64,000 nucleotides of DNA, taken from positions 64,001 to 128,000 of IMG/VR virus record IMGVR_UViG_3300025030_001854; one strand, given 5' to 3'. Below are positions 3,900 to 50,400 of the stretch, in pieces. Source of the stretch: a virus. Numbering within the stretch: position 1 is the stretch's first letter; every line of letters starts with the position of its first letter. The notes under the pieces are model-generated. The model made no database searches. It had not been told where the DNA came from and saw only the letters and a list, made by a program, of their open reading frames with translations. A program made the translations under genes and the position numbers.

Positions 3900-4460
3900 T
3901 TATCCTAATGGGGTTAATTTTTTAGCTACGAACATAACTATTTTATAAATGAATTCCATAACAAAGACTATTCCCAACGCGGTTCCTCTTATACAAAAGG
4001 AATAAGGTCTATATAGATATTTATACCAAAAAGTTTTCGTCTGTTTAATATTTTTTATGACAGCCGAGTGCATATATTTAATAGAAGTTTGATATTCTTT
4101 ATTTGAATGTCTTTCTTCCTTTTCTACGGAGGCTTCACTAAATACACCCTTAATAATTAAAACATTAAATACAATAAAAAAATTATCTCCATTCTCGTCT
4201 TTATTAACTAAATATCCGCCAACATAAACATTTCCAGATAGCAAATCTTGGACCTCTGTCTTAATTAAACCAGTTCCAGTTTCATCTAAATAAAGCTTAT
4301 TATCTAGAAAAGAATATTTCGCTCCGGTTTCTGGAAGTCCGATAACTTGCCACTGAAAAAGTTTCCAATCAACATCATTAGCGAGCTTTCTTACTTCATC
4401 TGAAAACGGTAAGTATTTTAGTGCTTCTGGCCAATTTAAAAAGCTAAACGAGTTGTCCAT
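3900..4460 (-). CDS. hypothetical protein with a C-terminal hydrophobic segment, downstream of the ECF sigma gene
   Basis: 186 aa, C-terminal GTALGIVFVMEFIYKIVMFV, overlaps the sigma gene. Confidence 0.6.
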   Translation of the reverse strand: MDNSFSFLNWPEALKYLPFSDEVRKLANDVDWKLFQWQVIGLPETGAKYSFLDNKLYLDETGTGLIKTEVQDLLSGNVYVGGYLVNKDENGDNFFIVFNVLIIKGVFSEASVEKEERHSNKEYQTSIKYMHSAVIKNIKQTKTFWYKYLYRPYSFCIRGTALGIVFVMEFIYKIVMFVAKKLTPLG

Positions 4461-5055
4461 AATTTTCTAATATTAATTTCTTTGCATTATTTCTAGCAAA
4501 ATGTAATCGACTCATAACTGTTCCAATGGGAATTTTAAGTTTTTCGCTTATTTCTCGATAAGATAATTCTTCTTCTAGGGCTAGTCTAATAATAGTAGAG
4601 TGTTCCGGTTTCAGTTTATTCAAAACAATATCTATAATTCCTCGGAGTTCTCTAAGGTCTTCTTTCTTAGAAAGAATCTTTTCTGCCGTTTCTTCTAAAA
4701 TAGCATCTGCCCCCAAAGAAATATATTCATAATCATTATTATGGTCTTCCTGTGAAAAATGAAGCGTTGAAACTTCATGATGTTGGATTTTATTTCGAGA
4801 TTTTATAAAGTTTAGGGCTTCATTTCTTATAATTACAAATAACCAAGTATTAAAAGAAGAGTCCTGACGAAAATTTTTAATTTTTCTCCAAACTTTCTCG
4901 GAGGCTATTTGGATAATATCATCAGCATCGGTAGATGGAATATTGTATTGGGAAAATAAACGTTGTTTAAAAAATGGAAGATGTATTGATAATAGTTTGG
5001 TAAACGATTCTTCACATCCATTTTGAGCTTTATTAATAAGTTCTTTTTCGTCCAT
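4444..5055 (-). CDS. ECF (sigma-70 group 4, RpoE-like) RNA polymerase sigma factor
   Basis: Region 2 DADDIIQ...F..DSSFNTWLFVIIRN; region 4 LSYREISEKLKIPIGTVMSRLHFAR. Confidence 0.9.
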   Translation of the reverse strand: MDEKELINKAQNGCEESFTKLLSIHLPFFKQRLFSQYNIPSTDADDIIQIASEKVWRKIKNFRQDSSFNTWLFVIIRNEALNFIKSRNKIQHHEVSTLHFSQEDHNNDYEYISLGADAILEETAEKILSKKEDLRELRGIIDIVLNKLKPEHSTIIRLALEEELSYREISEKLKIPIGTVMSRLHFARNNAKKLILENYGQLV

Positions 5056-6519: not shown

Positions 6520-6559
6520 AGATTATTAGACTAATAAACATAAAAAATATTTCAATTGA

Positions 6560-6942
6560 TGGACTCGGATGGAGTTGAACCATCGTCTTTAAAAAAATTC
6601 TCATTTGATGCTACAAGTTTATTTAATTATTAGTTCTTACTAAATACATAATTAACAAGAATCTTTAGTAATATTTAAATGATTTTTCCGTTCACATTTA
6701 AAACTGAACGTTTTTCCTCGCTGTTTCGACATATAAGATAGCGAGAATCTCTTAGATATCGGTATGACCATTAGTTAGGCCATAACAGTTTCGCGTTCAA
6801 GCGTGATAACACGCATAGAGGCGAGCTTTTTCACTAATTTGCTTTTGGCAGTTAATGTTTTGTCCGTTTATTTAAGTGGCCAACGAACGTCCACTACTTG
6901 CATCTAGTAACAATTTTATTAAATCGAAACCAGTACGAGCCC
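6560..6942 (-). ncRNA. ssrA: tmRNA (SsrA), phage-encoded
   Basis: 5' GGGCTCGTACTGGTTTCGA pairs with 3' CGAGTCC-A, giving an acceptor stem with the G3:U alanine determinant. T-arm GATGG-TTCAACT-CCATC. Resume codon GCC after TAACT; tag frame 6849-6775 reads AKSKLVKKLASMRVITLERETVMA*. Length 383 nt. Confidence 0.92.
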
Positions 6943-10242: not shown

Positions 10243-10582
10243 ATAGTTTTTTGATTATCCATCTAAAAAGGAAATACCCTAGTATTGATAATAATATATT
10301 TAAACCTAAAGTATAAAATGGTAAAAAAACTAATGATAAAATATTAATCCATACCCCAAAACAAATTGGACAATTTAACATTCGTGTTGGGAAACTGGGA
10401 AACTTATATTCTAAGAAGTCTGGATAACTTAATGGAGTCATACCCTTTTTACAATCTTCCTCATAAGGAGCATATTTTAAAAACTTTAGTCTAAATAACT
10501 TCGCCCACTCTATAAAAGCATTAGTATCAAACCAAATATATAAAACAACTATAATAAAAGATATCCCATAAATTAATTCCAT
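10235..10582 (-). CDS. small membrane protein with CPIC..VW motif (DUF1360-like)
   Basis: Hydrophobic helices and LNCPICFGVW. Confidence 0.6.
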   Translation of the reverse strand: MELIYGISFIIVVLYIWFDTNAFIEWAKLFRLKFLKYAPYEEDCKKGMTPLSYPDFLEYKFPSFPTRMLNCPICFGVWINILSLVFLPFYTLGLNILLSILGYFLFRWIIKKLYE

Positions 10583-10585
10583 ATT

Positions 10586-10684
10586 TTAATTTTCCCTTTC
10601 GCCATTATATTTCGATTCTTTAAAAAAAGAATAGGTGTTCGCCACCAAAATATAACACAGTAACAATATACACAAAGAAGCCAT
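10586..10684 (-). CDS. possible 32-aa membrane peptide
   Basis: MASLCILLLCYILVANTYSFFKESKYNGEREN, ending 3 nt before the next ATG. Confidence 0.3.
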   Translation of the reverse strand: MASLCILLLCYILVANTYSFFKESKYNGEREN

Positions 10685-10844
10685 CCATAGTTAGACAACC
10701 AAAAGTTTTTCTTATTCTACCGAAATTTTCTTGAATATTTACAAATATTTGTGTATCTATTGTTGAAGAACAAAAACTAGCATAGTAAATACCTCACTAT
10801 ATATTTTAAAAAATATATTCTTTTAGCAGCTATGAACTATGTAT

Positions 10845-11280
10845 GAACAAAAGGCGAAAATCCTTTTCAGCCCGCCGAGAAGACAACGGAAGGGTTTTCC
10901 CAAGTTGCCCTACCAAACTGGAGGGGAAAAGTAATAACTAGGCCGCAGTTGGCACCCGGCGGCGACAAAGCTGAAGCCAATCAGACGCAATAAGGGACAG
11001 GCACCATTCATTGATGGTAAAAAAAGAGGCTATCTTAATAAGATAGAAGTTGACAGGAATCCGCTAGACCTGAAAAGGTGAAATCGGAAGTATAAATGAG
11101 TTCTAGGCTCTCTCTCATCACCAATATTTATATTGGTAGCTTCTGGAAGCCGAAAGGCTATAAATCTCAATGCACTCTTCGCAAACTCCCGGCGAATTCA
11201 AAAAATATAACGGGACTTCAAGAATAGAGTCATTATTTTCCCTCTAGAGTTTTTTAATAAACTCTCTAGGGGGAAATTTC
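10845..11280 (+). ncRNA. candidate large structured non-coding RNA, family not recognised
   Basis: No long ORF. Core 10861-10980 is 66/120 G+C by hand count in an AT-rich genome. About a dozen stems, including nested TTCAGC/GCTGAA and CCGCCG/CGGCGG, two GAAA-tetraloop hairpins and a long 3' hairpin at 11236-11277. Confidence 0.7.
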
Positions 11281-11392
11281 ACCCGGTATATTTGCTTAAG
11301 AATTCATCATTAAGAGTCTACAAAAGAATTACGTTTAAAACTTTAATAAGACCATTCGTGAATATTTTACCCACTTCTACCGTCAAACTTTT

Positions 11393-11815
11393 ATGGAAAT
11401 TATGGAAAACGAAGTCATGGCTGATATTGTAAAACGTCCTATAATTAAAGATTCAGGACAACGGGAAGATTTCTCAACTGGTTCAAAAAGAGACACCCGA
11501 AACGGTAAAGGGAGATTCGATTTACTTCCTTTGTTCGCTGAGGAAGAATTGGCTAAACATTTTGAGGCTGGGGCCGTAAAGTATGGAGACAATAATTGGC
11601 TAAAGGGCCAACCTTTATCCAGGTATTTAGATTCAGCTCGTAGACATTTAAATAAAGCCGCTAGAGGCCAACGAGACGAACCTCATTTTACTGCTGCCGC
11701 TTGGAATATTATGTGTCTTATTGACACTATGAAAAGAATAGAACTTGGTCTTTTACCTGAAAGTTTAAATGACCTTTTACCAGTTTTACCAGAAGAAGTA
11801 GAAAAACTATTATGA
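11393..11815 (+). CDS. dATP/dGTP diphosphohydrolase-domain protein (DUF5664 family)
   Basis: FSTGSKRD...GKGRFDLLP, GAVKYGDNNWLKG, YLDSARRHL, EPHFTAAAWN. Confidence 0.82.
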   Translation: MEIMENEVMADIVKRPIIKDSGQREDFSTGSKRDTRNGKGRFDLLPLFAEEELAKHFEAGAVKYGDNNWLKGQPLSRYLDSARRHLNKAARGQRDEPHFTAAAWNIMCLIDTMKRIELGLLPESLNDLLPVLPEEVEKLL

Positions 11816-12435
11816 TTTCTCCTAATTTACTAATGATGGGTAAGTCTGATACTGAACTTATCCGATTAGTTAAAAATGACGCTGATAATGAAGCTATTTT
11901 AGAAGTATGCAGAAGATACGAGAATATTTTTTACAAAATCTGCCAAAGATATTCTTCGTCTCTTACCAAGGTCGGAATTGACGTTAACGATATTTTCGAT
12001 GAGAAGTATTATATTATTTTTTATTGTATCTGTTCATTCAAACCATCTAAAAAAACTAAACTCTCTACTTGGATAGGAAACTATGCCAGGTATCTTTGTC
12101 TTAATGCTATAAATTCTAAGAAATTTATTTTACCATCTTCCGATGAAGAAATTAAACAGAAAATCGAAGAGACTCAATGTAAGAACGTCTTTCTTAAAAA
12201 TGAAGACAAACAAGGAGAGTATTCTTTTATTTTAAATATTCTATCTCAACTCAAAGACCCTAGAATTTATAATGTATTTAATTTAAGATATTCTCATTTG
12301 CCAAACAAAATGATTTGGTCTAGAATAGCTTCATCGTTAGGTCTTTCTACTCAAACCGCTATCAACTTACATAATAAAGGATTGAGAATATTAAAAACTA
12401 AAATTAAAAGTAAAGATTTCTGTGATTTTATTTAA
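11812..12435 (+). CDS. divergent sigma-70-family RNA polymerase sigma factor
   Basis: SDTELI, FKPSKKTKLSTWIGNYARY (region 2), WSRIASSLGLSTQTAINLHNKGL (region 4 HTH). Confidence 0.75.
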   Translation: MISPNLLMMGKSDTELIRLVKNDADNEAILEVCRRYENIFYKICQRYSSSLTKVGIDVNDIFDEKYYIIFYCICSFKPSKKTKLSTWIGNYARYLCLNAINSKKFILPSSDEEIKQKIEETQCKNVFLKNEDKQGEYSFILNILSQLKDPRIYNVFNLRYSHLPNKMIWSRIASSLGLSTQTAINLHNKGLRILKTKIKSKDFCDFI

Positions 12436-12894: not shown

Positions 12895-14007
12895 ATGCGA
12901 AAATTAGCTTTACACCTACCTATTAATTCGGTTTCTTTTGGACAAGTATCTACATTGCTTTTAAGAACTATTTGGGAGAAGGAACAAAAAGGAGAATCTG
13001 ATATTAATTGGAATTTATTTCCGATTGATGTTATAGACCTTGGCTCTCAAACAGCATTACCACAAGAATTCGTTCAATGGTTACAACAGAAAATCGCTAA
13101 TTCAATGGAAACGTTTTCTAGAGATACTCCTATGTTTAAATTATGGCACTTAAACGGGAGCTTAGAATCTTTTTCTAGAAATCAAACGTTATTATCTTTT
13201 TACGAGTTGGATAATCCAACGAAAATAGAACTTAATATTGCAAGAAATAATAATAAATTATGTTTGTCTAGTCAGTATGCAGTTAACGTATTTAAGATAT
13301 ACGGCGTGGAGGCTAACTTTCTACCATTGGCATTTGATTCTTTTAATTTTAGGACTATCAATAAACAATTCCATACTGATGGAAGGATAGTATTTAATTT
13401 GTGTGGTAAACTCGAAAAACGAAAACATCATGCAAAAGTAATTCAAGCTTGGATTAAAAAATATGGTAACAATTCTAAATATGTTCTCCAATGCGCCGTA
13501 TATAATCCTTTCTTGGGGGAAAAGGGTAATAATGAGCTTCTTGGGCAAATATTAGGTGGAAATAAACCATTTAATGTAACATTTTATCCTCACATGAAAG
13601 AAAATCAAATCTATAATGAATTTCTTAATAGTGCTAATATCATTATTGGTATGTCTGGTGGTGAGGGTTGGGGGTTGCCTGAATTTCATTCTGTAGCTAT
13701 TGGTAAACATGCTATTTTATTAAATGCTCATGCTTATAAAACGTGGGCGACAAAAGATATGGTAACTATGGTTCAACCATCAGGAAAAATTTCCGCTGTA
13801 GATGGAATGTTTTTTAGACCAGGAGATGTTTGGAACCAGGGAAATATTTTTGATTGGAACGAAGAAGAATTTTTACAAGCTTGTGAAGAAGCGGTTATCA
13901 AATATCAAAAAAATCCAATAAACAAAGAAGGACTAACTTTACAAGAAAAATTCTCGAAAGATAAGTTTTTAGATTCTGTTATTTCTCTAACAGAGGCTCA
14001 ATCATGA
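12895..14007 (+). CDS. GT-B glycosyltransferase (GT4-like)
   Basis: GKLEKRK and SGGEGWGLPEFHSVAIGK motifs. Confidence 0.8.
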   Translation: MRKLALHLPINSVSFGQVSTLLLRTIWEKEQKGESDINWNLFPIDVIDLGSQTALPQEFVQWLQQKIANSMETFSRDTPMFKLWHLNGSLESFSRNQTLLSFYELDNPTKIELNIARNNNKLCLSSQYAVNVFKIYGVEANFLPLAFDSFNFRTINKQFHTDGRIVFNLCGKLEKRKHHAKVIQAWIKKYGNNSKYVLQCAVYNPFLGEKGNNELLGQILGGNKPFNVTFYPHMKENQIYNEFLNSANIIIGMSGGEGWGLPEFHSVAIGKHAILLNAHAYKTWATKDMVTMVQPSGKISAVDGMFFRPGDVWNQGNIFDWNEEEFLQACEEAVIKYQKNPINKEGLTLQEKFSKDKFLDSVISLTEAQS

Positions 14008-15046: not shown

Positions 15047-15885
15047 TGAAAACTCTACAGAATTGCGGAAAATTGATAGTTAAAGAATCCCCAATAGAAG
15101 GATTTGGGGTCTTTGCCACAGAAGACATTCAAAAAGGGACTATTCTTGAAGAAGTTCCTTTTGTTACCATTCCAAATTGGGCATCCTTTGGTAAAGCGTT
15201 ATATGATTTTTTATCAACATCTGAATGGATGGGTGATAAAGTAAAATATACAGAAAATTTAAGAAAAAACTTGGGTTTTAAAGACCCAGAAAAATACTAT
15301 TTTAAATGGTTTCCCCAGCATCAATTAGATAAGAGTCAAATTTCTTATACAGTTCTTCCTTTAGGATTTGGATGTATTTATAATAGTTCTAATACCCAGA
15401 ACAACGCGGGTTGGGTTATTAAAGATAGTCTTTTTATATTTAAAGCAGAAAAGGATATTCAAAAAGATGAAGAGGTAAAAACGTTTTATGGATATTTTTT
15501 AAGTGAAAATGGAACAATATTTAATTGCGATAATGTATTTAATATTGGATTAGATATCATTAACGGAACTCTTAAATTAAAAATGTTTAGATTTAGTTCT
15601 ATTGAAGTTTTTGAGGCAAGTCGGGTCCATCCAACATATATTCGTGGTCAAAAAATGTTAGCAGATTCTAAAGACGGACTTTCAATTAAAAAAATATCTT
15701 CGTCTAACTCTCCTACTGAAGACCAACAAGCAGTAGATGTTCCAGAAGTTGCTACACTACAGGATGTATATACAAGATTATCTGAATGTAAGAACCTTCC
15801 TAGAACTTTCTCTAGAATTCATATTGAATATACTAATAGAGAAGGAGAAATAGTTAAAGACGTTTTAGTATTTAAAAATTCTTGA
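15046..15885 (+). CDS. SET-domain protein (putative lysine methyltransferase)
   Basis: SPIEGFGVFATEDIQKG, GFGCIYNSS..NNA, AEKDIQKDEEVKTFYG. Confidence 0.75.
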   Translation: MKTLQNCGKLIVKESPIEGFGVFATEDIQKGTILEEVPFVTIPNWASFGKALYDFLSTSEWMGDKVKYTENLRKNLGFKDPEKYYFKWFPQHQLDKSQISYTVLPLGFGCIYNSSNTQNNAGWVIKDSLFIFKAEKDIQKDEEVKTFYGYFLSENGTIFNCDNVFNIGLDIINGTLKLKMFRFSSIEVFEASRVHPTYIRGQKMLADSKDGLSIKKISSSNSPTEDQQAVDVPEVATLQDVYTRLSECKNLPRTFSRIHIEYTNREGEIVKDVLVFKNS

Positions 15886-16558
15886 TATCTTCGTGGTTTT
15901 TGTATTTGTATATTATTTCTATCCATTTAAAAAATTCTTTTTCATTCATATTCATTTTCATGGATTGTAAATCTTTGTGAATCCATTGTATATTATCTAA
16001 TTCATAACCCTTAGAGGAATCTATTCTATCTAAAGATGCAGTTTGGTTTTTGTAATTTTTATAATTAATTTCTAAATTTATCGGTTCTCCAGATAAAGCA
16101 CATTTTCCAAATTGTTTCTCAAACTGCTTCCAAGCATCTTTTATTGTTATATTGAAAGATAAATTTCGATGTTTCGCCCCACTTTTTACTCTCCAAAAAT
16201 AGCTTCCATTTATTTTCCCATATCTCGTTAATTTTAAACATCCACAACTTTTACATTCTCCATTTTTTAAATTTCTTAGTCTAACGATTTTAATGTTTCC
16301 ACAATCACAAAGACATTCCCATTTAGACATATTATCTACTGAATTTTTAACTCTTGATTTAATAATAAGTTTTCCGTATCGTAAACCTATATATTTTTTT
16401 AATGCTTCTTGAATATGCTCGTCACTGTTTCTAATTGGTATATTAAACTTTTTTAAATAATTTAATACCGTTGAATAACTTACTTTTAATTGAAAGGCAA
16501 TATTCTTGCTACTGAGTTTTTGATTAATATATAATTCGTATAATAAATTTTTATCCAT
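15872..16558 (-). mobile_element. free-standing HNH-type homing endonuclease gene, antisense to the operon
   Basis: N-terminal HTH, WECLCDCGN...KSCGC module, GKCALSG, SLDRIDSSKGYELDNIQW. Confidence 0.8.
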
Positions 16559-16615: not shown

Positions 16616-16647
16616 CCTCAAACTACTATAATAGTTTGAGGTTTTTT
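16616..16647 (+). terminator. intrinsic terminator-like hairpin
   Basis: Perfect 10-bp stem CCTCAAACTA/TAGTTTGAGG, 6-nt loop, followed by TTTTTT. Confidence 0.65.
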
Positions 16648-16650
16648 GTT

Positions 16651-17382
16651 ATGAATTTTACTTTATTTTTAAATTCCAGAGGAAGAGTTGAGCAGCTTAA
16701 AAGATTTATTGAAGTGGTCGAAAATGTTACAATTAATTTAGCAGAAACAGAATTAATAATTACAGGCGATAATGATGACCAAGAAACCGTAGAATTTTTA
16801 AATTCTCTAAATTCTAGAAAAACTCTTATTTTTAATCCCATAATCGGAGATAGACCAAAAAGTTTATGCGGCTCATATAATAATATGGCAAATAGAGCTA
16901 GCGGGAAATATCTATTTGTAATGAACGATGATGCTGAAATATTGACTATGGGTTGGGATGAAATTGCATTAAAGAAAATTTCCGACTTTAAAAAAGAAAA
17001 AAATATTAAAGATGATATAATTTTTGGCGTTACTTCTGATACAAGTGTCGATAAGGCCCACACAAAAGAATACCCATCTTTTCCAATTATTAGTAAACAA
17101 GCAGTAAACGTTCTTGGATTTTTTATGCACGATAATTTTGTTGGTTTAGGTGGAGATAGTTCTATTTATCGCGTATATCAAGAGTCTCAACGATTAGTAG
17201 ATATGACCGCAATAGTAGTAGACCATATTTACCATAATACTATTTATAAAGTAATGGCTCCAGATAAAACTGCTGCTGAGATGAGAATGAATTCTGCCGT
17301 TAATCCAGTTGACCCATTTTCTTTTGATGTATCAGATGATGTTAAAAAACTACAAGATTTTATTAAAGCTACCAACAAATAA
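16651..17382 (+). CDS. GT-A (GT2-like) glycosyltransferase
   Basis: NSRGR, DNDD, YN.MA..ASGKYLFVMNDD; ATG at 16651. Confidence 0.75.
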   Translation: MNFTLFLNSRGRVEQLKRFIEVVENVTINLAETELIITGDNDDQETVEFLNSLNSRKTLIFNPIIGDRPKSLCGSYNNMANRASGKYLFVMNDDAEILTMGWDEIALKKISDFKKEKNIKDDIIFGVTSDTSVDKAHTKEYPSFPIISKQAVNVLGFFMHDNFVGLGGDSSIYRVYQESQRLVDMTAIVVDHIYHNTIYKVMAPDKTAAEMRMNSAVNPVDPFSFDVSDDVKKLQDFIKATNK

Positions 17383-29583: not shown

Positions 29584-31941
29584 ATGGAAATCCTTATTTT
29601 AGCAGACTCTAGAGCTATGTGGCCGAGAGAATATAGTTGGCCTAATGTATTACAACAGATGCTTGGTAAAGGATATAATATCACGTCTTATATTAGCGGA
29701 ATAGATAAATGGCTTGCATCTATTAATATGATGGAAGAATTTCTTTTGGACAAATTCCCAGATAAAGTATTCGATATTATCATTATTCAAGCGGGATGGC
29801 ATGAGGGAGGACCATGCTTCTGGCCCGAAGAAACGTGGAAAGAGATTATAAATACCAAAACCAGAGAATTTAACCAATCTTCTCTTATTGATAAAATAGA
29901 AAATAATGGTAAATCTAAATTTTTATATAAAGACGAAAAAGAAGAAAAATCTGTTTTTAAAACATTTAGGTCAAGAGGAAGAAATGTTATTTTTATTAAT
30001 ATGCATTCTGTTCGGCCACCAAACGATTTAAATAAAGAGTATGGTCTTGGAATGACTCATCAATATAAACAACTAGAAGCTAATTTTAGATTTTCTCCTG
30101 TTGATTGCGATTCTTTTTCTTTACCACAAGACAATGAATGGATATCTAATTGTTGTTTACCTGATAGGTTGCATTATATGTTTCATGGAATTAATTATAT
30201 TGCTACTTATTTAGCCAGATATATTCAACGAGCACACAAAATATTACCCAACCTATTAGCAGATTCATCTAAACACAAATCTCTTTTTGAAGAATCCAAA
30301 AGAATAGGTTCATTTATTGCAAATAATACACAGGAACGAGATAAAGTAATTTTGTGCGATGATTTGACTTCCAATTTAATTGCTGCTTTTTGGGGATGTA
30401 TTCTTTATAATCGTATTCCATTGATTATACAACATCCTTCAGTTAAAGTTCATTCTTCAGAATTTCATAAAAAGTTACAAAGAATAAAAGAAATAGTAAA
30501 TCCATCATTTTGTTTTTGTTCGGAAAAATATTTTTCGTCGCTTAAGACATTTTTTAACGCGGCATTTACTATAAATAATCCTCACAATGATAGATATGAA
30601 TTAGATTTGATTGATTATTCTTCTGATGATGTCGCCTTTTTGCAATTATCATCAGGAACCACTGGTGACGTTAAAATATTAGAAGTAACACATAAGCAAG
30701 CAATAGAGAATGTCGAAGAATATGCTCTTATTTCTAACATCAATCAGTATAGTTCTATTGTTTCTTGGCTACCATTATATCACGATATGGGATTAATTAC
30801 TTCGGTTATTATTCCTGTTGTTATGGATTGTTCAGTTGCATATATAGATACATTTTTATGGCTTTCTCGCCCAGTGTTAATATTAGAAATGATTGAGAAA
30901 TATAAAGCTACTCATGTTTGGTGGCCGAATTTTGTTTTTTCGTTTTTGGCTAATCAAAAAGACGATATATCTAAAATAGATTTATCTTCTTTACAATTTT
31001 TAATTAGTTGTTCTGAGCTTTCATTCAATAAAGATATTAATAAATTTATTGAAAAATATAAAAATAATAAACTTAATTGTCAGATAGCTAATTGTTATGC
31101 CCTAGCGGAAAATGTATTTGCCGTCAGTCAATCTAATTCTCTATCTTCAATAACACTAGCTAATGGTTTTTCATTAACAAGTTGCGGTAGAGCTATGCAG
31201 GGGATTTCTGTTTTAATTTTAAATGATAACGAAGAAGATATTACTGGGGAACCAGTTGTTGGTAAAATTTATATTAAAAGTAATACTATTACAACTAAGA
31301 CTCTAAATAAATATGGATATTATGATACTGGAGATTTAGGATTAATATATAATGGAGAAATTTTTGTAGCTGGAAGAAATAAAGACAATTTTGTTTCTTT
31401 TGGAATTAATATTTATCCAGAATTAGTTGAAAAAAGTCTTGATGGTATCAAAGGAATTACCCCAGGAAGAATAGCTTGTATTGGAATCCAAGATAATGAA
31501 CTAGGAACATGTAGAACATTTATTATTGCTGAAACAAACGACTTATCTCTTGCTGACGTTATCTCTAAAGAAATATCTTTAACTGTTAAAAATTTATACG
31601 AAGTCTCCCCTACTGTATTTATAGAAAATCCATCGTTTTTAATCAAAACTTCCAGTGGTAAAATAAGCCGTTTTCGTTCTGGGGAAAAACTAATTAAAAA
31701 AATAGGAATATTAAATATCATTAATAAATTCTTGGCTGAAAAAAATAAACCGAGTATTAGAATAAGCGACAGATTATATACCTCTGGTTTATTGGATAGT
31801 TTGGAACTGTTTGAATTAATTCTATTCTTAGAAAAATCAGGGGTATCTTTAAATAAAGAATTATTAACCAAAGATAGTTTTCGTATTGATTTAGACAAAA
31901 TTGATAATATTGATGGAATTATAGCAGTATTACCAATATAA
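29584..31941 (+). CDS. fusion protein: SGNH-like domain + acyl-AMP ligase (FAAL-like) + acyl carrier protein
   Basis: N-terminal ILADSR/IQAGWHE/DRLH; adenylation motifs QLSSGTTG..K, SWLPLYHDMGL, YALAEN, YDTGDLG, GRNKD, KTSSGKISR; C-terminal GLLDSL phosphopantetheine site. Confidence 0.85.
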   Translation: MEILILADSRAMWPREYSWPNVLQQMLGKGYNITSYISGIDKWLASINMMEEFLLDKFPDKVFDIIIIQAGWHEGGPCFWPEETWKEIINTKTREFNQSSLIDKIENNGKSKFLYKDEKEEKSVFKTFRSRGRNVIFINMHSVRPPNDLNKEYGLGMTHQYKQLEANFRFSPVDCDSFSLPQDNEWISNCCLPDRLHYMFHGINYIATYLARYIQRAHKILPNLLADSSKHKSLFEESKRIGSFIANNTQERDKVILCDDLTSNLIAAFWGCILYNRIPLIIQHPSVKVHSSEFHKKLQRIKEIVNPSFCFCSEKYFSSLKTFFNAAFTINNPHNDRYELDLIDYSSDDVAFLQLSSGTTGDVKILEVTHKQAIENVEEYALISNINQYSSIVSWLPLYHDMGLITSVIIPVVMDCSVAYIDTFLWLSRPVLILEMIEKYKATHVWWPNFVFSFLANQKDDISKIDLSSLQFLISCSELSFNKDINKFIEKYKNNKLNCQIANCYALAENVFAVSQSNSLSSITLANGFSLTSCGRAMQGISVLILNDNEEDITGEPVVGKIYIKSNTITTKTLNKYGYYDTGDLGLIYNGEIFVAGRNKDNFVSFGINIYPELVEKSLDGIKGITPGRIACIGIQDNELGTCRTFIIAETNDLSLADVISKEISLTVKNLYEVSPTVFIENPSFLIKTSSGKISRFRSGEKLIKKIGILNIINKFLAEKNKPSIRISDRLYTSGLLDSLELFELILFLEKSGVSLNKELLTKDSFRIDLDKIDNIDGIIAVLPI

Positions 31942-31953
31942 AAGATATGAAGT

Positions 31954-32595
31954 ATGAATGTTTTGATTTTATCTGATTCTCGTGGAACTGTCCCACAAGG
32001 AAACTCATACATAAATAAATTAATACGTCTATTACCGAATTTTTCTTTTACTTATTTTAATATTGGTTCTCAATTTCATATTAATACCCTAAATAAACTA
32101 GAAGAGTTTGTTATTGATTTAAATAAGAAATTTGATATATTAATAATTCAAGTTGGAATACATGATAATGGAGTTTTGCCTTGGCCTAAAACGATATGGG
32201 AATATTATTTAAATACCAAATATAGAAGATTTGAAAAAGCTTTTTTGTATCAACGTCCACCGTTCATGAATACAAATTTGTTTTTTTATCAAAACGAACA
32301 AGAAGAAAAAGATTGTTTTAAAACGTTTAGGAAATATTGCAAAAAAATAGTTTTTTTAAGTCCTCATGGTATATATTTATCAGTTTTCGAAAATAAAGTG
32401 ATTCATTTTGGAGAGGACTATAGACAACTAAACCTAAATAATATTAATAGAATATCTAAACTGGCCGACGAAACAATTTTTCTGCCACAAGACGAAAAAT
32501 TTAAATTAAAATATACTATGGATGCAGGAATTCACTATAATGACGCTGGTCATAATTTTATCGTGAGAAAAATTAAAAAAGCATTAAAATCATGA
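31954..32595 (+). CDS. SGNH/GDSL-like hydrolase or acyltransferase
   Basis: ILSDSR, IQVGIHD, DAGIHYNDAGH; resembles the N-terminal domain of the upstream fusion. Confidence 0.7.
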   Translation: MNVLILSDSRGTVPQGNSYINKLIRLLPNFSFTYFNIGSQFHINTLNKLEEFVIDLNKKFDILIIQVGIHDNGVLPWPKTIWEYYLNTKYRRFEKAFLYQRPPFMNTNLFFYQNEQEEKDCFKTFRKYCKKIVFLSPHGIYLSVFENKVIHFGEDYRQLNLNNINRISKLADETIFLPQDEKFKLKYTMDAGIHYNDAGHNFIVRKIKKALKS

Positions 32596-44851: not shown

Positions 44852-47415
44852 ATGAATTTATAAACGATTTTGAATCAATGGAGGTTCCCATTCTTGGGGT
44901 TCGACTTCCAGAATTCGCTATTGAAGAGAAATATTTAAAAGCAGTTGGTTTAAAATTAGGAACATCTAATTATGATTTTCTTCGAGCTTTATGTATTGAG
45001 GGGTTTAAGAAACTAAAAATATCTAAATCTAACCCAAATTATCAAATTTATGGAGATAGAGTTAAACACGAACTTGGAATTCTTTCCGAATTAGGATTTG
45101 TTGATTACCTATTATTAGTATGGGATGTCATTAATTATTGTAAAGAAAATGATATTCCGACTGGTTTGGGTCGAGGAAGCGCGGCAGGAAGTCTTGTCCT
45201 TTATCTTATTGGTGTCACTAAAATAGACCCTATTAAATACGGACTCTATTTTGAAAGATTCGTGTCTAAAATTAGAGCTAAAAAACAAATCTTTGACGGA
45301 ATTACCTATTTAGACGGTTCGTTAATGTGCGATGTGGATTTGGATATCTGCTACTATAATCGTCCAAAAGTATTAGCTTATTTGGATAAGAAATTTGCCG
45401 GAAAAACATCTAAGATTCTTACATTTAATACTTTATCAGCTAAATTGGTTATTAAAGAGGTCGGTAAGATTCTAGGTGGAGTTCCAGAAGAAGAAATGAC
45501 TCATGTTACAAGTATGATTCCTAAACAGCATGGAATCTTGGAGGATTTAGATGTTGCCTATGAAAAAGTGGGAGAATTTAAAGAATGGTGTGATACTCAT
45601 AGTCTTGTTTATTCTGTAGCTTTAAAATTAAAAGACCTTATTAAAAATAAGGGGGTTCATCCATCAGGAATTATGATTACTCATGGAAACCTACTAGATT
45701 CTTGCCCCACAGAACTTTCTTCAGAAAAGGAAATTGTTTCTTCCTATGACATGAACTGGGTGTCATTATTTTCTGTTAAGTTAGATGCTTTGGGTTTACG
45801 TGGAGTGTCGGTCGTAGATGATATATGTAAACAATTAGGAATTAAGGTCGAAGACATAGATTTAAATGACCCAATTATATATCAGAGCCTACAAAGTTTG
45901 AAATACCCACAAGGTCTATTCCAATTAGAGGCTGACCTATGCTTTAAAACAACCCAAAAAGTTAAACCAAAGAATATGCAAGAATTAAGTGCTATTCTTG
46001 CTGTCGCCCGTCCTGGTGCGATGCAATTTATTGACAAGCTCGCTCTGTATACAACAACTGGAACTATTGACAGTATTCATCCATTTTTTGAAGATATTTT
46101 AATAGAAACTGGTGGGGTTGCCCTATATCAGGAGCAGTTAATGAAAATGGCTAATAAAATTGGTTTCACCTTGGATGAAGCCGAAATTTTAAGGAGAATT
46201 GTAGGAAAAAAGAAAGTTGACGAAGTTAAAAAATGGAAAAGTAAAATTGAAGAAAAAGTAAAAGAGCAAGGACTTGATAAAGAAATAGGAGAAATCTTAT
46301 GGAAGATTTTGGAAGATTCGGCAAGTTATTCATTCAACAAGAGCCATAGTGTAAGTTATGCTGCATTGGCTGCTTTAACAGTCTACTTAAAATTCAAATA
46401 TCCAACAAATTTCTTCTTGTCTCTTCTTTCTATGAGTCAACATGAACCTGACCCCATAGGAGAAATAGCTAAAATCCATAAAGAAATGCAATATTTTAAT
46501 ATTAAATTGCTTTCTCCAAGCTTATCTTATTCCCAAATTAAATTTACTATTGAAGGAAAAGATATTCGTTTCGGTCTTTCTTCTATTAAGGGCATTGCCG
46601 AAAAAACAATTGAAAAACTTAATAATTTTAAACGAGAACATGCCAATAAATTTGAATTATTTGAATCTGCGAAAGAAGCCGGTCTAACAATCGGAGTCCT
46701 CTCCGCTCTTATTCAGGCTGGAACACTGTCTAAATTTGGCGATAAAAGAGCATATTTAGTCTATGAGGCTCAATTATGGAACCTTCTTAAACCGAAAGAA
46801 AAACAAAACGCTATTTCTTTAGCTTTAAAGTATGATTATAAATTAATTCCCATTGTTAAAGCGTTAAATCAGGTTCATAAAGATGAAAAAGGACGACCTT
46901 TAATCAAGGATTCAAGAATGGCAACTATAAAAAAGGGTTCAGAAAGATATAAAAATATTTTTGAACTAAATGATGTATGTGCTGATTTCGCTAACTGGTG
47001 GTATGAAAAACGATTATTGGGTTATGTTTCCGACAAGCACTTAATTGATATATTCTTATCCAAAAAAAGTTCATTATCCCCCATTAATGAAATATTAGAA
47101 TTGCCAGAGGATTCTTACGTTGATTTTATTGGTCATATTGATGAAAATCCTACGCTTGGAACTTCTAGGACAGCTAGAAAAAGCAAATATGCCAAATATC
47201 AAATCAGTGACGAAACAGGGACCGTTAAAGTCATGATTTTTAATGATTCTCTTGAAGAATGTAAAACTTTAAATGGAGTTCTTCCTAAACAAGAAGATAT
47301 CGTAATTGTAAGCGGAAGGAAAAAGGGGGATGATACTATTTTCGCCCGCTTAATTGCTGTTCAACAAAATGTAATTTATACAAAACTTTCAGAATTAAAA
47401 GACCCAACAGTTTAA
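44842..47415 (+). CDS. dnaE: DNA polymerase III alpha catalytic part (lacks the PHP domain)
   Basis: GF.DY.L.V.D, GRGSAAGSLV.Y, FERF, DVDLD, HPSG, KLD.LGL, G.FQ.E, YQEQ.M, FNKSHS..Y, IRFGL..IKG, C-terminal OB fold. Confidence 0.92.
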   Translation: MQVNEFINDFESMEVPILGVRLPEFAIEEKYLKAVGLKLGTSNYDFLRALCIEGFKKLKISKSNPNYQIYGDRVKHELGILSELGFVDYLLLVWDVINYCKENDIPTGLGRGSAAGSLVLYLIGVTKIDPIKYGLYFERFVSKIRAKKQIFDGITYLDGSLMCDVDLDICYYNRPKVLAYLDKKFAGKTSKILTFNTLSAKLVIKEVGKILGGVPEEEMTHVTSMIPKQHGILEDLDVAYEKVGEFKEWCDTHSLVYSVALKLKDLIKNKGVHPSGIMITHGNLLDSCPTELSSEKEIVSSYDMNWVSLFSVKLDALGLRGVSVVDDICKQLGIKVEDIDLNDPIIYQSLQSLKYPQGLFQLEADLCFKTTQKVKPKNMQELSAILAVARPGAMQFIDKLALYTTTGTIDSIHPFFEDILIETGGVALYQEQLMKMANKIGFTLDEAEILRRIVGKKKVDEVKKWKSKIEEKVKEQGLDKEIGEILWKILEDSASYSFNKSHSVSYAALAALTVYLKFKYPTNFFLSLLSMSQHEPDPIGEIAKIHKEMQYFNIKLLSPSLSYSQIKFTIEGKDIRFGLSSIKGIAEKTIEKLNNFKREHANKFELFESAKEAGLTIGVLSALIQAGTLSKFGDKRAYLVYEAQLWNLLKPKEKQNAISLALKYDYKLIPIVKALNQVHKDEKGRPLIKDSRMATIKKGSERYKNIFELNDVCADFANWWYEKRLLGYVSDKHLIDIFLSKKSSLSPINEILELPEDSYVDFIGHIDENPTLGTSRTARKSKYAKYQISDETGTVKVMIFNDSLEECKTLNGVLPKQEDIVIVSGRKKGDDTIFARLIAVQQNVIYTKLSELKDPTV

Positions 47416-50400
47416 ATCAAATTTTTTGATACTAAACATATAGGTAATCCTTCTGTCGCGAAAGCACTATTTAATAAATCTTCTTGAAGGGTTACCCTTG
47501 TTCCTCTTCCTGAAGTTATACATTTTCCACTATTTATAATAGCATCAGTTGAAACAGAATCATACATCTGAAACTGATTAGATATTCCATATTGTTTAGA
47601 TATATCTGGATTTTTTAAACCATTAGGTAACGGTTGTCCCCTAGATGCGGAAAAAATCATAGCACTATTAGTAAAGGTTAATCCGTCGTCAGGGGGCATT
47701 ATTTCTATGGTTTCTCCAGGATTTAAAATCTCAATTGAACTAAATGCTGGCCATAAAAGTTTGTTGTAATTTTCTGGATATGTCATAAACATTCCACTAT
47801 ATTCTTGGTAATCTGTAATTCTAAGTCCTGGTTTTCTTTGTTTCATGATTGATGGCGCTTCTAATACTGGACGATTAGTAGTAGAAGTTGGTTCAATAAA
47901 AAATTTGGGGTTTAATCTTGATAAAACTGGGGACATATATACTGGGTCATATAGTGGTTTGAGTTCGTCTCCCGAAGAAATATTTTCTAATATAATTCCC
48001 TCGGTGAATATAGCTGTATCGGCTTGACCTAAATACCCCATTTCTCCAGAGACGACACAATAACCAGAAGGATTAATAATATGTAAATCTTCATATGGAA
48101 TAGCTTTATATTCTATAGAAACATTTTTAAAAGTAAATGAAATTCTTACTCCCTCTCTATATCCGCTAATATCCATTCCCTGTCGTCTTTGTCTACATCT
48201 TTTAGACCAATATTCTTCTACGGTATCTGAAGAATCATATATAAAATTATCAAAAGAGTCTATTCTTCCATAGCCTGTAAACCGACTTTCGTCGTCTGGT
48301 TGAGGATAAAGTTTACCTGTTCTAGAAAAAGTAACAAAAGTATGAGAACCCTTGAGTCCCTCAAAACCATTAGAATGTGGAATAACAAATTTTAATTCTA
48401 GTCCATTATTAGGAAAATTATGGATATTTAACCAATCACGTTCTCCTTTATGGAAATTAAGATGATAGTTTTCTCCATTTAGGGTTTTTCTTGCTTTAAG
48501 TGTTAATTTGCCCGAAGGAACTCCCTTTTTTGTTTCTGCCAAATGTCCATCTTCAATATATCCATCTCCACCCACCGTTGGATTGGAATAAACATTTATA
48601 TGTAATGGATAACCAGCCTTAATAACTGAAACAATAGAGTAATTAGCATATCTTCCACCTTCTTCTAATTTTAGTCCACTAATAATATACTGACTTTCTT
48701 TCGTAGGGTCGTCAGTGCAATTAGGATTATCAGCATACATCTGTGAAACTTTTCTATTATTTACATATAGGTCAGTAAATCCTTGCACACTATTAGGATA
48801 CATTAAACCGATTTCTACATCTCTATCAAACGGACCAATAGTTATACCTGAAGAATCATACCATTCGCCGATAGATGAGGTTTTATTAATAATTGGGAAT
48901 AAAGTTGATAAATCAAATTCTAAATACATTCCACTTCTAAAAGTAGTAATGAGATTCCCAGTATATCCTATTTTTGCATACTGAATAACAGAGCTGCTAG
49001 TAAACGGTAGAGGTAACGAACCAGTATATCCCAGTGGATTATATCTTAATGAAGAAGCCCAAATAACTGTCCCTGTTGGAGAACTATTAAATAATAAAAT
49101 TCCATCATCATCTTCTGGAGTTCTAAAACACTGATAATCATAACATGGATAATCATCACTTCTATCTCGACAATAAATACTATAAGTTTGAGCTGAAAAG
49201 CCCAACCAAGCATCACCAATTATTTCGCGAGAATGATATCCACCCTGCCCAGAGGCAGAATATAAACCATAATTTAATAACTCTTCTTGTCGTCCCCCAA
49301 TATATTCAAAAAATAATGGGTCTTTTCCTGTCTCTATATCAAATCGTTGGTCATTATTATCTGTAATTTGACAGGTCTGAGAGTAATAATCAGCAAATGT
49401 AGAATTAATCCCAGGAGTCATTCCCAACCTACCAGAATTAATATTAAAAATAGGAGGAGTATAAATTAATTCTACTTCATCAGTAAACGCATCGTAAGCA
49501 TGAAATAGTCCCAAAGATAATGGCCGCAAATCATATGTATAAATATAATGTTCTGAATCTAAACCTGTAAACCATTTATGAGTCCAAACATCATATCCTG
49601 TAAGATAATATCCGTTTTCAAAATAGGTATTTATATCTGCATCTAAATTAAAGGTAGTATTATTTTTTCCAGAAGGAACAAATCCTTTATAAAGTGGAGC
49701 CCATTGATTATTAACCAAATTAATTCCTAGTCGTTTTTGAAATGGTTGGTCAACTTTTTTATTATTAATATCTAGAGATGACCATCCGACATCATTTGTT
49801 TCGAATATTTTGGTCATGATAGGGGCATTATTTGGATATGCTAATCCCCCTAATCCATCTGGACGTTTTACTGGAATATATTTAATATTAGATGAGACTG
49901 TTCCATCAGAATTGATATGATATACCCCAAAAATTTCTTTTACCACTTCTTCTCTTACCTCTAAATTAAATTTTACTTTATAAGGAAATCCTCTAAGTTT
50001 TCCTACATATAAAGCATTAGCTCCTAATGCTTGTGGATATAAAAACTTACGATTTTCCGTATTAAATGGACCACTAGTAAATCTTGGAAGATAGTTGTCT
50101 GATGACTGAGTGGCCATGATTCTAGGAAATTCGTTTTCCATATCTTCTGGCAATGGAGAAAATGAAGACCATCCAGTATATTTAATATTACTTGTTTCTG
50201 GGAAGCTATTGTCCAAATAATAATATTCTCTTTGAATACCTGATTCGTCAAATGCTATTTTTTTCACCAATCCAACTGTTTGCCCATTAACTAAATATCC
50301 ACTAATAAATGTAATTGTCTTAACGTCGTCACCAATAATATCTTCTTGATAGCTATCAATAATATTATTTAATTCAATAATTTGTCCACCACCACTTAAT

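Follow-up and report, generated by a model that had tools for sequence, protein, structure and literature searches.

What fills a gap of 811 nucleotides (nt) between two divergent blocks of phage genes? The gap (10583–11392) lies in the window analyzed here, a 64,000-nt stretch formed by bases 64001–128000 of the 136,838-base IMG/VR virus record IMGVR_UViG_3300025030_001854. It is the largest in that window between open reading frames (ORFs) of at least 100 amino acids (aa), the sense in which a preliminary description of the sequence rightly singled it out. That description proposed that positions 10845–11280 encode a large plus-strand phage noncoding RNA (ncRNA) outside the known families. 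The core of the proposal has held up: the element has no match in Rfam 15, covariation is found in 67 modeled pairs, and we have next to no doubt that 10845–11280 (+) is a genuine conserved structured RNA gene. The RNA is a member of a previously uncatalogued family.

Fold, homologues and covariation

The element has a G+C content of 42.9%, compared with 31.9% for the whole window, and the 66 G+C in 120 positions previously counted at 10861–10980 were reproduced. ORFs within it are short only (31–46 aa). The plus strand folds at −120.9 kcal/mol, compared with −105.25 ± 5.1 for 100 dinucleotide shuffles (z −3.07, 0/100 as good), and so beats the shuffled controls that the preliminary description had named as a check, while the minus strand has a z of −1.79 with 5/100 shuffles as good.

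A blastn search of 50,697 phage records returned no relative of the RNA, and neither did BLAST and nhmmer searches of loci anchored on the DUF5664 gene, upstream of which a syntenic gap had been suggested as the place to look. The first homologue came from BLAST of five related viral records, as a 33-nt, 88%-identical match in G007 (202,882 bases), which was also the sole return of two exact-motif scans of IMG/VR. The G007 locus is a full homologue in the same setting, with a divergent 117-aa membrane-like gene and a sigma-like gene downstream. Between the window and G007 the RNA has 73% column identity, and the membrane-like and sigma-like proteins are 34% and 42% identical, respectively. All homologues were gathered through one anchor gene, the sigma-like gene, the second of the genes that follow the element in the window:

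11393–11815 (+): gene with a dATP/dGTP-diphosphohydrolase domain, first gene of the rightward block
11812–12435 (+): divergent sigma-like gene (Sigma70 r2 E 5e-4, PHROG sigma factor E 7.5e-7)

The sigma-like protein gave 8 IMG/VR loci and 80 metagenome loci, and in 35 rows, representing 31 distinct sequences, iterated nhmmer located the RNA ahead of the sigma-like gene on the plus strand. The RNA is present in 25 of the 44 metagenome loci having at least 1500 nt upstream of the anchor. In the GTDB species genomes, a scan anchored on the sigma-like gene turned up no relative of that gene. The same genomes yielded 45 loci with an RNA motif that is matched by 15 of the 31 family members, and none of the 45 fits the covariance model R1 described below; in IMG/VR the motif returned 10 loci, of which 6 were known before and 4 were false.

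Contigs of a related strain differ from the window RNA by 4 substitutions and one insertion in 436 nt; their flanks carry 8 substitutions in ∼245 nt upstream and ∼18 plus indels in ∼100 nt downstream. Of the four changes within the RNA, two are at junction bases and one is in a loop; the fourth, a C>U (C>T at 11151, in helix P12), leaves a G-U pair in place. Contig depth is below 5, so single differences may be errors.

Two covariance models were used for the comparison. R1 covers the central domain, was built from 15 seed sequences and matches 30/85 sources; R2 covers the 5′ domain and matches 23/85. Every match lies on the plus strand, that of the downstream genes, as the preliminary description had it. 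The R1 alignment has 33 pairs, distributed over 7 helices of which pseudoknot PK1 is one; they are 89.9% paired, compared with 68.0 ± 0.9% in 500 shuffles, and 27 of them are changed on both sides, amounting to 208 cells against 64 cells in shuffles. When the 3′ partners were slid by 1–3 columns, only 37–49% pairing remained. The 34 pairs of R2 are 85.7% paired (68.7% in shuffles, 31–48% in slid controls), with 25 changed on both sides. Covariation among the homologues, proposed earlier as a check, is therefore strong and well above both kinds of control. Both alignments were fitted to their models and so are biased toward the modeled structure; an unfitted MAFFT alignment analyzed with RNAalifold already recovered P9–P11 with the same compensatory pattern. 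G-U pairs are frequent, for example 9/30 at pair 110/191 of R1 and 15/22 at pair 31/59 of R2, and would be A-C mismatches on the opposite strand, so that their abundance argues for the plus strand only. The 3′ domain was assessed with scripts and permutation tests, because MAFFT seeds were inconsistent there and P13/P14 cells only ∼50–65% paired; these tests are weaker than the model counts, and their permutations ignore relatedness.

The fold has three parts, namely a 5′ domain (P1–P6), a central domain (P7–P12 with PK1) and a 3′ domain (P13–P14 with PK2). It comprises ∼14 helices and two pseudoknots, and the family ranges from ∼380 to 470 nt. In the window its features are as follows:

10849–10867 (+): P1, hairpin AAAAGG/CCTTTT; R2 helix 1, 6 pairs, 81% of cells paired, 3 both-side changes
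10869–10896 (+): P2, outer AGCCC/GGGTT and inner CCG/CGG hairpin; R2 helices 2 and 3, 76–77% paired, with compensatory examples at pair 34/56 (UA 9, CG 5) and pair 36/52 (CG 8, AU 6)
10899–10908 with 10987–10996 (+): P3, long-range helix of CCC..GTTGC with GCAAT..GGG, the best-supported helix of the 5′ domain; R2 helix 4, 8 pairs, 90.8% paired, 7 both-side changes, inner 5 pairs paired in 75/75 seed cells
Between the two strands of P3 (+): P4, a window-specific insert (10909–10969, missing from G007, the closest compact homologue) and P5, as judged from homologue comparison
10971–10984 (+): P5, CTG-AAGCCAAT-CAG; 96% paired
11003–11018 (+): P6, hairpin ACCAT/ATGGT; R2 helix 7, both-side changes in 5/5 pairs, 84% paired
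11019–11029 (+): A-rich linker, its 3′ end AGAGG (11025–11029) being the 5′ strand of PK1 (R1 helix 1)
11030–11046 (+): P7, hairpin CTATCTT/AAGATAG; R1 helix 2, both-side changes in 6/6 pairs, 83.6% paired
11060–11088 (+): P8 region, with the inner GNRA-capped ACCT-GAAA-AGGT at 11068–11079; R1 helix 3
11084–11090 with 11140–11146 (+): P9, which closes a three-way junction with P10 and P11; 7 pairs, 97.1% paired, 6 both-side changes
11096–11118 (+): P10, its loop bearing the 3′ strand of PK1 (11109–11113); 100% paired, both-side changes in 5/5 pairs
11120–11137 (+): P11; 95% paired in R1
11148–11159 (+): P12, hairpin AGCC-GAAA-GGCT; R1 helix 7, both-side changes in 4/4 pairs, 79.8% paired
11169–11178 with 11226–11234 (+): P13, AATG.ACTCT with AGAGT.CATT, enclosing P14; script test
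11178–11196 (+): P14, hairpin present in 28/28 sequences with many different stem sequences
11187–11191 with 11211–11215 (+): PK2 (H-type), P14 loop TCCCG with CGGGA; swap test
11197–11210 (+): A-rich strand of the 3′ domain, between P14 and the 3′ strand of PK2
11236–11277 (+): terminal hairpin, long and GC-based with a CCCC/GGGG base that is paired in nearly all 28 sequences; sequence of the upper stem not conserved

PK1 joins 11025–11029 to 11109–11113, and its pair 13/139 is AU in 13 and GC in 10 of the 23 sequences with letters there, leaving 0 unpaired. For P13, the 5′ strand pairs with its own 3′ segment at −13.9 kcal/mol against −10.8 kcal/mol for cross combinations (0/5000 permutations). 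PK2 draws its support from the swap of loops and partners between sequences (own 3.43, cross 2.94; 6/5000 permutations as high), with GGC/GCC, GGU/ACC, GCC/GGC, CCC/GGG and CUC/GAG among the pair types of homologues; taken by itself in per-sequence shuffles it is unsupported (p 0.03–1.0). No helix joining the 5′ and 3′ ends of the RNA was found.

Every stem listed in the preliminary description exists at its coordinates, and the homologues back the hairpins now called P1, P6, P7, P11 and P12, the ACTCT/AGAGT pairing (P13) and the terminal hairpin. The TCCG/CGGA helix drawn around ACCT-GAAA-AGGT fares differently from what it encloses: the inner hairpin is conserved as inner P8, whereas the outer pairing competes with P9, and in homologues the outer P8 helix is of CCC/GGG type (79.5% paired). 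The TTCAGC/GCTGAA and CCGCCG/CGGCGG helices said to close a multibranch domain are window-specific and not conserved, the homologues favoring P2, P3 and P5 instead, and TCCCG/CGGGA, read as a nested stem, is instead the pseudoknot between the P14 loop and downstream sequence. P9, P10, P14 and PK1 were absent from the earlier list. Overall the term “large ornate ncRNA” fits as a descriptive kind, not a homology family, in that the RNA is longer than 350 nt, noncoding and diverse in sequence, with many covarying helices and pseudoknots. Two homologues, L149 and L151, are nearly identical over the central and 3′ half of the RNA and different in their 5′ domains, and the P3 interior of L151 is ∼60 nt larger; this pattern suggests modular exchange within the RNA.

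At gathering cut-offs, Rfam 15 recognizes in the whole window only a transfer-messenger RNA (tmRNA) at 6557–6942 (−). With the threshold relaxed to E ≤ 10, the interval 10500–11500 gave five unrelated matches of 13.9–20.7 bits against cut-offs of 44–195, and 20 homologue loci gave 0 matches. The RNA therefore belongs to no Rfam 15 family, whether GOLLD, ROOL, OLE, raiA, HEARO, RNase P, tmRNA, SRP and 6S or group I/II introns, riboswitches and Y RNA. We did not find the RNA described in full-text literature searches, and fragments of it may figure in the supplements of one survey (PMC10690425), considered below.

Gene ends, the repeated box and the role of the RNA

Four features at and beyond the ends of the RNA bear on its role:

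10790–10844 (+): AT-rich upstream region, promoter site in homologues; no clear −35/−10 pair in the window itself
11216–11236 (+): box A, CTTCAAGAAT...CATTA (as RNA CUUCAAGAAU...CAUUA), ∼20–25 nt before the terminal hairpin and overlapping the 3′ strand of P13
11290–11316 (+): box B, a copy of box A, ..TTTGCTTAAGAAT..CATCATTA.., after the terminal hairpin (and T-run)
11354–11363 (+): palindrome ATTCGTGAAT, between box B and the first ORF (start 11393)

We scored promoters as TTGAC(A/T/G), 16–18 nt, TAnnnT with at least 9 of 12 matches, a sigma70-type consensus. On this basis a promoter ends a few bases before P1 in 21/29 homologues. The terminal hairpin is found in all members, and in 21/28 the first 9 nt beyond its stem include 5 or more T. 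The next ORF follows 24–439 nt beyond the hairpin, with a comparable sigma70-like promoter in between in only 4/29.

Boxes A and B align better with each other within a sequence than across sequences (local alignment score 11.5 own, 7.1 cross; 0/5000 permutations over 28 sequences), with z-scores against shuffled B of 0.4 to 8.8, so that the two boxes change together from lineage to lineage. Within the 136,838-base record a combined box motif has just 2 hits, A and B themselves (0.33 in shuffles). We considered box B as a general phage promoter and rejected it: loose versions of the motif are no more frequent than chance, the combined motif is confined to A and B, and a box unique to its locus in the record is not a general promoter class. 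Box B likewise failed as an alternative partner, or a target in trans, for the strand to which box A pairs, with own and cross energies of −8.74 and −8.65 kcal/mol and 2022/5000 permutations as low; strand exchange, lacking specific complementarity, does not explain the repeat. A small conserved ORF starting in box B was also rejected by eye, since the reading frame running from box B to the palindrome, present in the window and G007, is lost in L151. A shared sequence-specific binder, or gene conversion, would account for the co-evolution of the boxes. By eye, TTCGTGAA-like palindromes or hairpins stand at the place matching 11354–11363 in several homologues, and the palindrome may be an operator or a second hairpin.

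The reading that we favor, tentatively and at less than even confidence, is that the RNA is an early leader of the sigma block whose terminal hairpin gates read-through. Host RNA polymerase would start at the early promoter, stop for the most part at the terminal hairpin and free the folded RNA. Whether transcription goes on into the sigma-factor operon would be decided by the fold, by a factor recognizing boxes A and B, or by both, and the freed RNA may act in trans as well. A gate of this sort would resemble RNA-based or nut-site antitermination at the heads of phage and plasmid operons. The promoter-like starts and T-runs counted above are consistent with a discrete gene, and the sequence order is that of an attenuator, with a structured leader, then a hairpin and T-run, then an ORF. 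A leader is further suggested by the co-oriented sigma-like gene, which lies downstream on the same strand, 47–1603 nt away, in 24/24 loci (hairpin-to-sigma distance 47–112 nt in 6), by the scarcity of promoters after the hairpin, and by boxes that flank the hairpin, co-evolve and are unique to the locus in the record. Possible precedents are conAn2 (PMC8191782) and HK022 putRNA (PMC9378689), given in passages of these sources as suppressing terminators in cis at operon starts.

Several observations weigh against such a gate. The ∼14 helices and two pseudoknots exceed what a cis-acting antiterminator needs and fit a stable ribonucleoprotein (RNP) or ribozyme better. No conserved alternative (antiterminator) pairing was found in the RNA, and box B has no lineage-specific complementarity to the 5′ strand of P13 or the P14 loop. 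Terminator-like sites in the downstream block occur at chance (11 against 8.5, 12 against 8.9), which gives no sign that processive antitermination is needed. In the window's own copy a sigma70-type pair at 9 of 12 or better is missing, the T-run is weak (3 T in 9), and a simple terminator scan finds no terminator here. In a marine subgroup, a conserved promoter-like pair scoring 8–9 of 12 lies between the hairpin and the next ORF. A look-up of RNA runs turned up none containing the stretch; the ends of the transcript were placed from sequence features and are to be taken as probable. The loci showing synteny with the sigma-like gene were found through that gene, and the RNA and its neighbors form a module of one clade, so their adjacency may be inherited rather than functional.

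Ranking second is a stand-alone, stable, trans-acting RNA, which could be an RNP scaffold, an RNA-only particle or a ribozyme. Box B, in the operon leader, would then imitate the site on the RNA (box A) that the partner protein binds, and would provide autogenous feedback as in ribosomal-protein operons. We hold this to be a plausible reading, if one that falls well short of being probable. The number of helices, the pseudoknots and the conserved single-stranded junctions suit it, as do a G+C content raised in the manner of stable RNAs, the hairpin end and a strong promoter of early type. Boxes that co-evolve while B is not complementary to the partner of A are what a shared protein-binding site would be expected to show. 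The RNA is accompanied by a 110-aa protein (21/24) and the sigma-like protein (24/24), and in one other class of sequence in the same genomic slot (class 2, below) an internal box recurs beyond the terminal hairpin in 7/7 loci. The partner protein of such an RNP would be encoded in the downstream block, yet no RNA-binding domain was recognized and no partner identified among the adjoining genes. Comparison with Rfam revealed neither a catalytic motif nor a match to a known ribozyme, box A is partly paired as the 3′ strand of P13 and for box B no comparable partner is evident, and the reading has its sole footing in analogy. The gated leader and the trans-acting RNA are compatible with each other.

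A very large riboswitch-like or attenuator leader, sensing a metabolite, tRNA or temperature and switching a terminator, is improbable. The sequence of promoter, RNA, hairpin with T-run and ORF within ∼50–110 nt in several members would suit it, and so would neighbors in nucleotide metabolism, namely the dATP/dGTP diphosphohydrolase domain and ribonucleotide reductase. However, the first downstream gene differs between members, the window and the 20 homologue loci match no riboswitch family in Rfam, no conserved antiterminator alternative was seen, and the sequence of the upper terminator stem is unconserved.

Very little probability attaches to a highly divergent member of a known family missed by Rfam, such as RNase P RNA, GOLLD, ROOL, a group I intron or a Y-RNA-type partner of Ro60. 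The size is near that of RNase P RNA, the pseudoknot of the A-rich linker presumably recalls, if vaguely, P4 of RNase P, and the phage also has a tmRNA and a Ro60-like (TROVE) gene, at 31–777 (−), running off the start of the window ∼10 kb from the RNA. Set against this are the failure of Rfam at E ≤ 10 over 1 kb and in the 20 homologue loci and the lack of a closing helix between the 5′ and 3′ ends; moreover, an element outside any gene is not an intron. The TROVE gene is missing from 4/4 other viral records that bear the RNA, including one with a completeness of 91%, which tells against the Ro60 partnership once suggested for this RNA, just as the silence of both Rfam models does against kinship with GOLLD or ROOL. 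A DNA-level element, be it a replication origin, a packaging site or a dense promoter/operator region, is equally hard to credit: the position between divergent blocks and the palindromic sequence at 11354–11363 would suit one, but the compensatory G-U pairs would be A-C mismatches on the opposite strand, the fold z-score is better on the plus strand, A/B is the sole repeat and no origin-typical tandem or iterated repeats are present, and promoter- and terminator-like ends bracket the element. The probability beyond these readings falls to something else.

Neighboring genes and other occupants of the slot

In the window the gap separates a leftward block (115-aa membrane-like protein, 150-aa protein and class II-like ribonucleotide reductase) from a rightward one, and the ORFs of at least 100 aa at 11393–47415 are nearly all on the plus strand, the three minus calls being 15872–16558, 16626–17063 and 31413–32012. 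The downstream block has the order optional nucleotide-metabolism gene, sigma-like gene, 110-aa protein and 370-aa protein. Its first gene varies, being the diphosphohydrolase in 2/25 loci including the window and in the others either a P-loop gene or the sigma-like gene itself. Order and orientation relative to the RNA are kept as follows:

Sigma-like gene: 24/24 loci
370-aa protein: 23/24 loci
115-aa membrane-like protein: 22/24 loci
110-aa protein of no known family: 21/24 loci
150-aa protein: 19/24 loci
235-aa protein: 17/24 loci

The RNA and its neighbors are therefore a conserved module of one phage clade. A partnership of the RNA with sigma factors, raised in the preliminary description, finds backing only in conserved synteny, itself read from loci collected via that same gene. 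The clade comprises large DNA phages encoding DNA polymerase III alpha, DnaB, ribonucleotide reductase, tmRNA and several sigma factors, and the record of the window has DNA polymerase III alpha, DnaB and another sigma factor. Sigma-like genes number at least two in the window; the other, at 4444–5055 (−), has clear Sigma70 r2 and r4 domains. The 370-aa protein, encoded at 12895–14007 (+), is the best-conserved neighbor of the RNA (48–62% identity) and has a weak glycosyltransferase-1 match (E 0.0023). The tmRNA scores 109.8 bits, and ARAGORN predicts for it a tag peptide of 24 residues. Farther away, 47412–52163 (−) and 52166–56908 (−) encode adjacent ∼1580-aa proteins without a Pfam or PHROG match.

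The RNA is not the only sequence found at this place. All 19 metagenome loci that have room for the RNA and lack it carry an ORF-free gap in the same slot, at least 400 nt long in 18/19, and so does L150, the closest relative by its diphosphohydrolase gene. The alternative stretches measure ∼400–600 nt and, judged by eye, several have a TTGAC-type −35 near the start of the gap. They sort, also by eye, into several sequence classes:

Class 2: L209, L213, L214, L231, L232, L234, L220, L223 and L217
Class 3: L204–L207
Class 4: L165, L185 and L186
Further stretches: L171, L179 and L150

None of them is matched by R1, R2 or Rfam, and they look like further uncatalogued RNA classes. In class 2 an internal ∼35-nt box is repeated after the terminal hairpin in 7/7 tested loci (z 3.0–7.7) and differs between lineages, so that a box repeat of this kind is seen in two slot classes. 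In L217 a tmRNA gene (697–1124, +) lies directly upstream of the class 2 RNA-like stretch. L150 has a ∼40-nt promoter-like segment (TTGAAT...) twice, at the start of the gap (2094–2134) and just before the downstream ORF (2572–2611).

One speculative reading, which we consider unlikely, is that the clade keeps an RNA slot at the head of the sigma operon, occupied by at least two and possibly four or more structured RNAs of ∼400–500 nt that are unrecognizable from one another and absent from Rfam, each driven by a host-type early promoter, as a new RNA-based device for timing phage transcription. The RNA could bind RNA polymerase or a phage sigma factor, and the repeated box could serve as a feedback or loading site. 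If true, this would be a new mechanism, not a variant of put, nut or 6S. Large intricate ncRNAs are rare and each has opened new biology, as with RNase P, tmRNA, OLE and the RNA-only cages of GOLLD and ROOL. Here a fold well determined from 31 sequences comes with a clear setting, the head of a sigma operon behind a host-type promoter, and the duplicated box provides a testable handle on function. Should the RNA gate or time sigma expression, phage development would have a new RNA-based switch; should it form an RNP or RNA-only assembly, it would be a compact target for electron cryomicroscopy. The other uncatalogued stretches in the slot suggest a wider unexplored layer of phage RNA biology.

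Comparison with known systems

Genes for GOLLD and ROOL, often carried by phages or prophages, sit beside tRNAs. The RNA described here is like them in kind only, as a large, multidomain, strongly covarying phage ncRNA that is richer in G+C than its surroundings. It differs in matching no Rfam model, in being shorter (∼380–470 nt), in having a box duplicated across its terminal hairpin and in its fixed syntenic slot upstream of a sigma-like gene. GOLLD and ROOL form RNA-only multimers, according to passages of PMC12286853. A survey of more than 10,000 viral structured-RNA candidates, drawn from sources including IMG/VR, overlaps with our work in its IMG/VR intergenic material and in discovery by covariation, as far as its method is set out in the passages concerned (PMC10690425). 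Its candidates are there given as 29–151 nt long, so that none can be the whole RNA, and single hairpins could be listed.

In conAn2 the RNA region lies within 283 bp and suppresses terminators in cis, according to passages of PMC8191782, and HK022 putRNA is described in part of PMC9378689 as acting alone on RNA polymerase. Like both of these, the present RNA has an early or operon promoter directly 5′ of it, heads a long same-strand block and precedes a terminator that it might override. It is several-fold larger, far more elaborate, and without similarity to them in sequence or model. In position it nonetheless agrees with the cis-acting antiterminators put, EAR and conAn2, since it follows the promoter, precedes the first terminator and heads a long operon of co-directional genes.

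The boxB elements of lambdoid nutL and nutR are two short RNA boxes that are alike within a phage and differ between related phages. Boxes A and B behave similarly, as paired copies that are alike and variable between lineages; they differ in standing only ∼60–80 nt apart, in flanking a single hairpin and in that box A lies inside a large fold, and no N-like protein was identified here. Ribosomal-protein operon leaders mimic the binding site of the protein on ribosomal RNA. Here too the leader of an adjacent operon holds a copy of part of a structured RNA, and the two co-evolve, with the difference that the copy comes immediately after the RNA's own terminator, within the same transcription unit.

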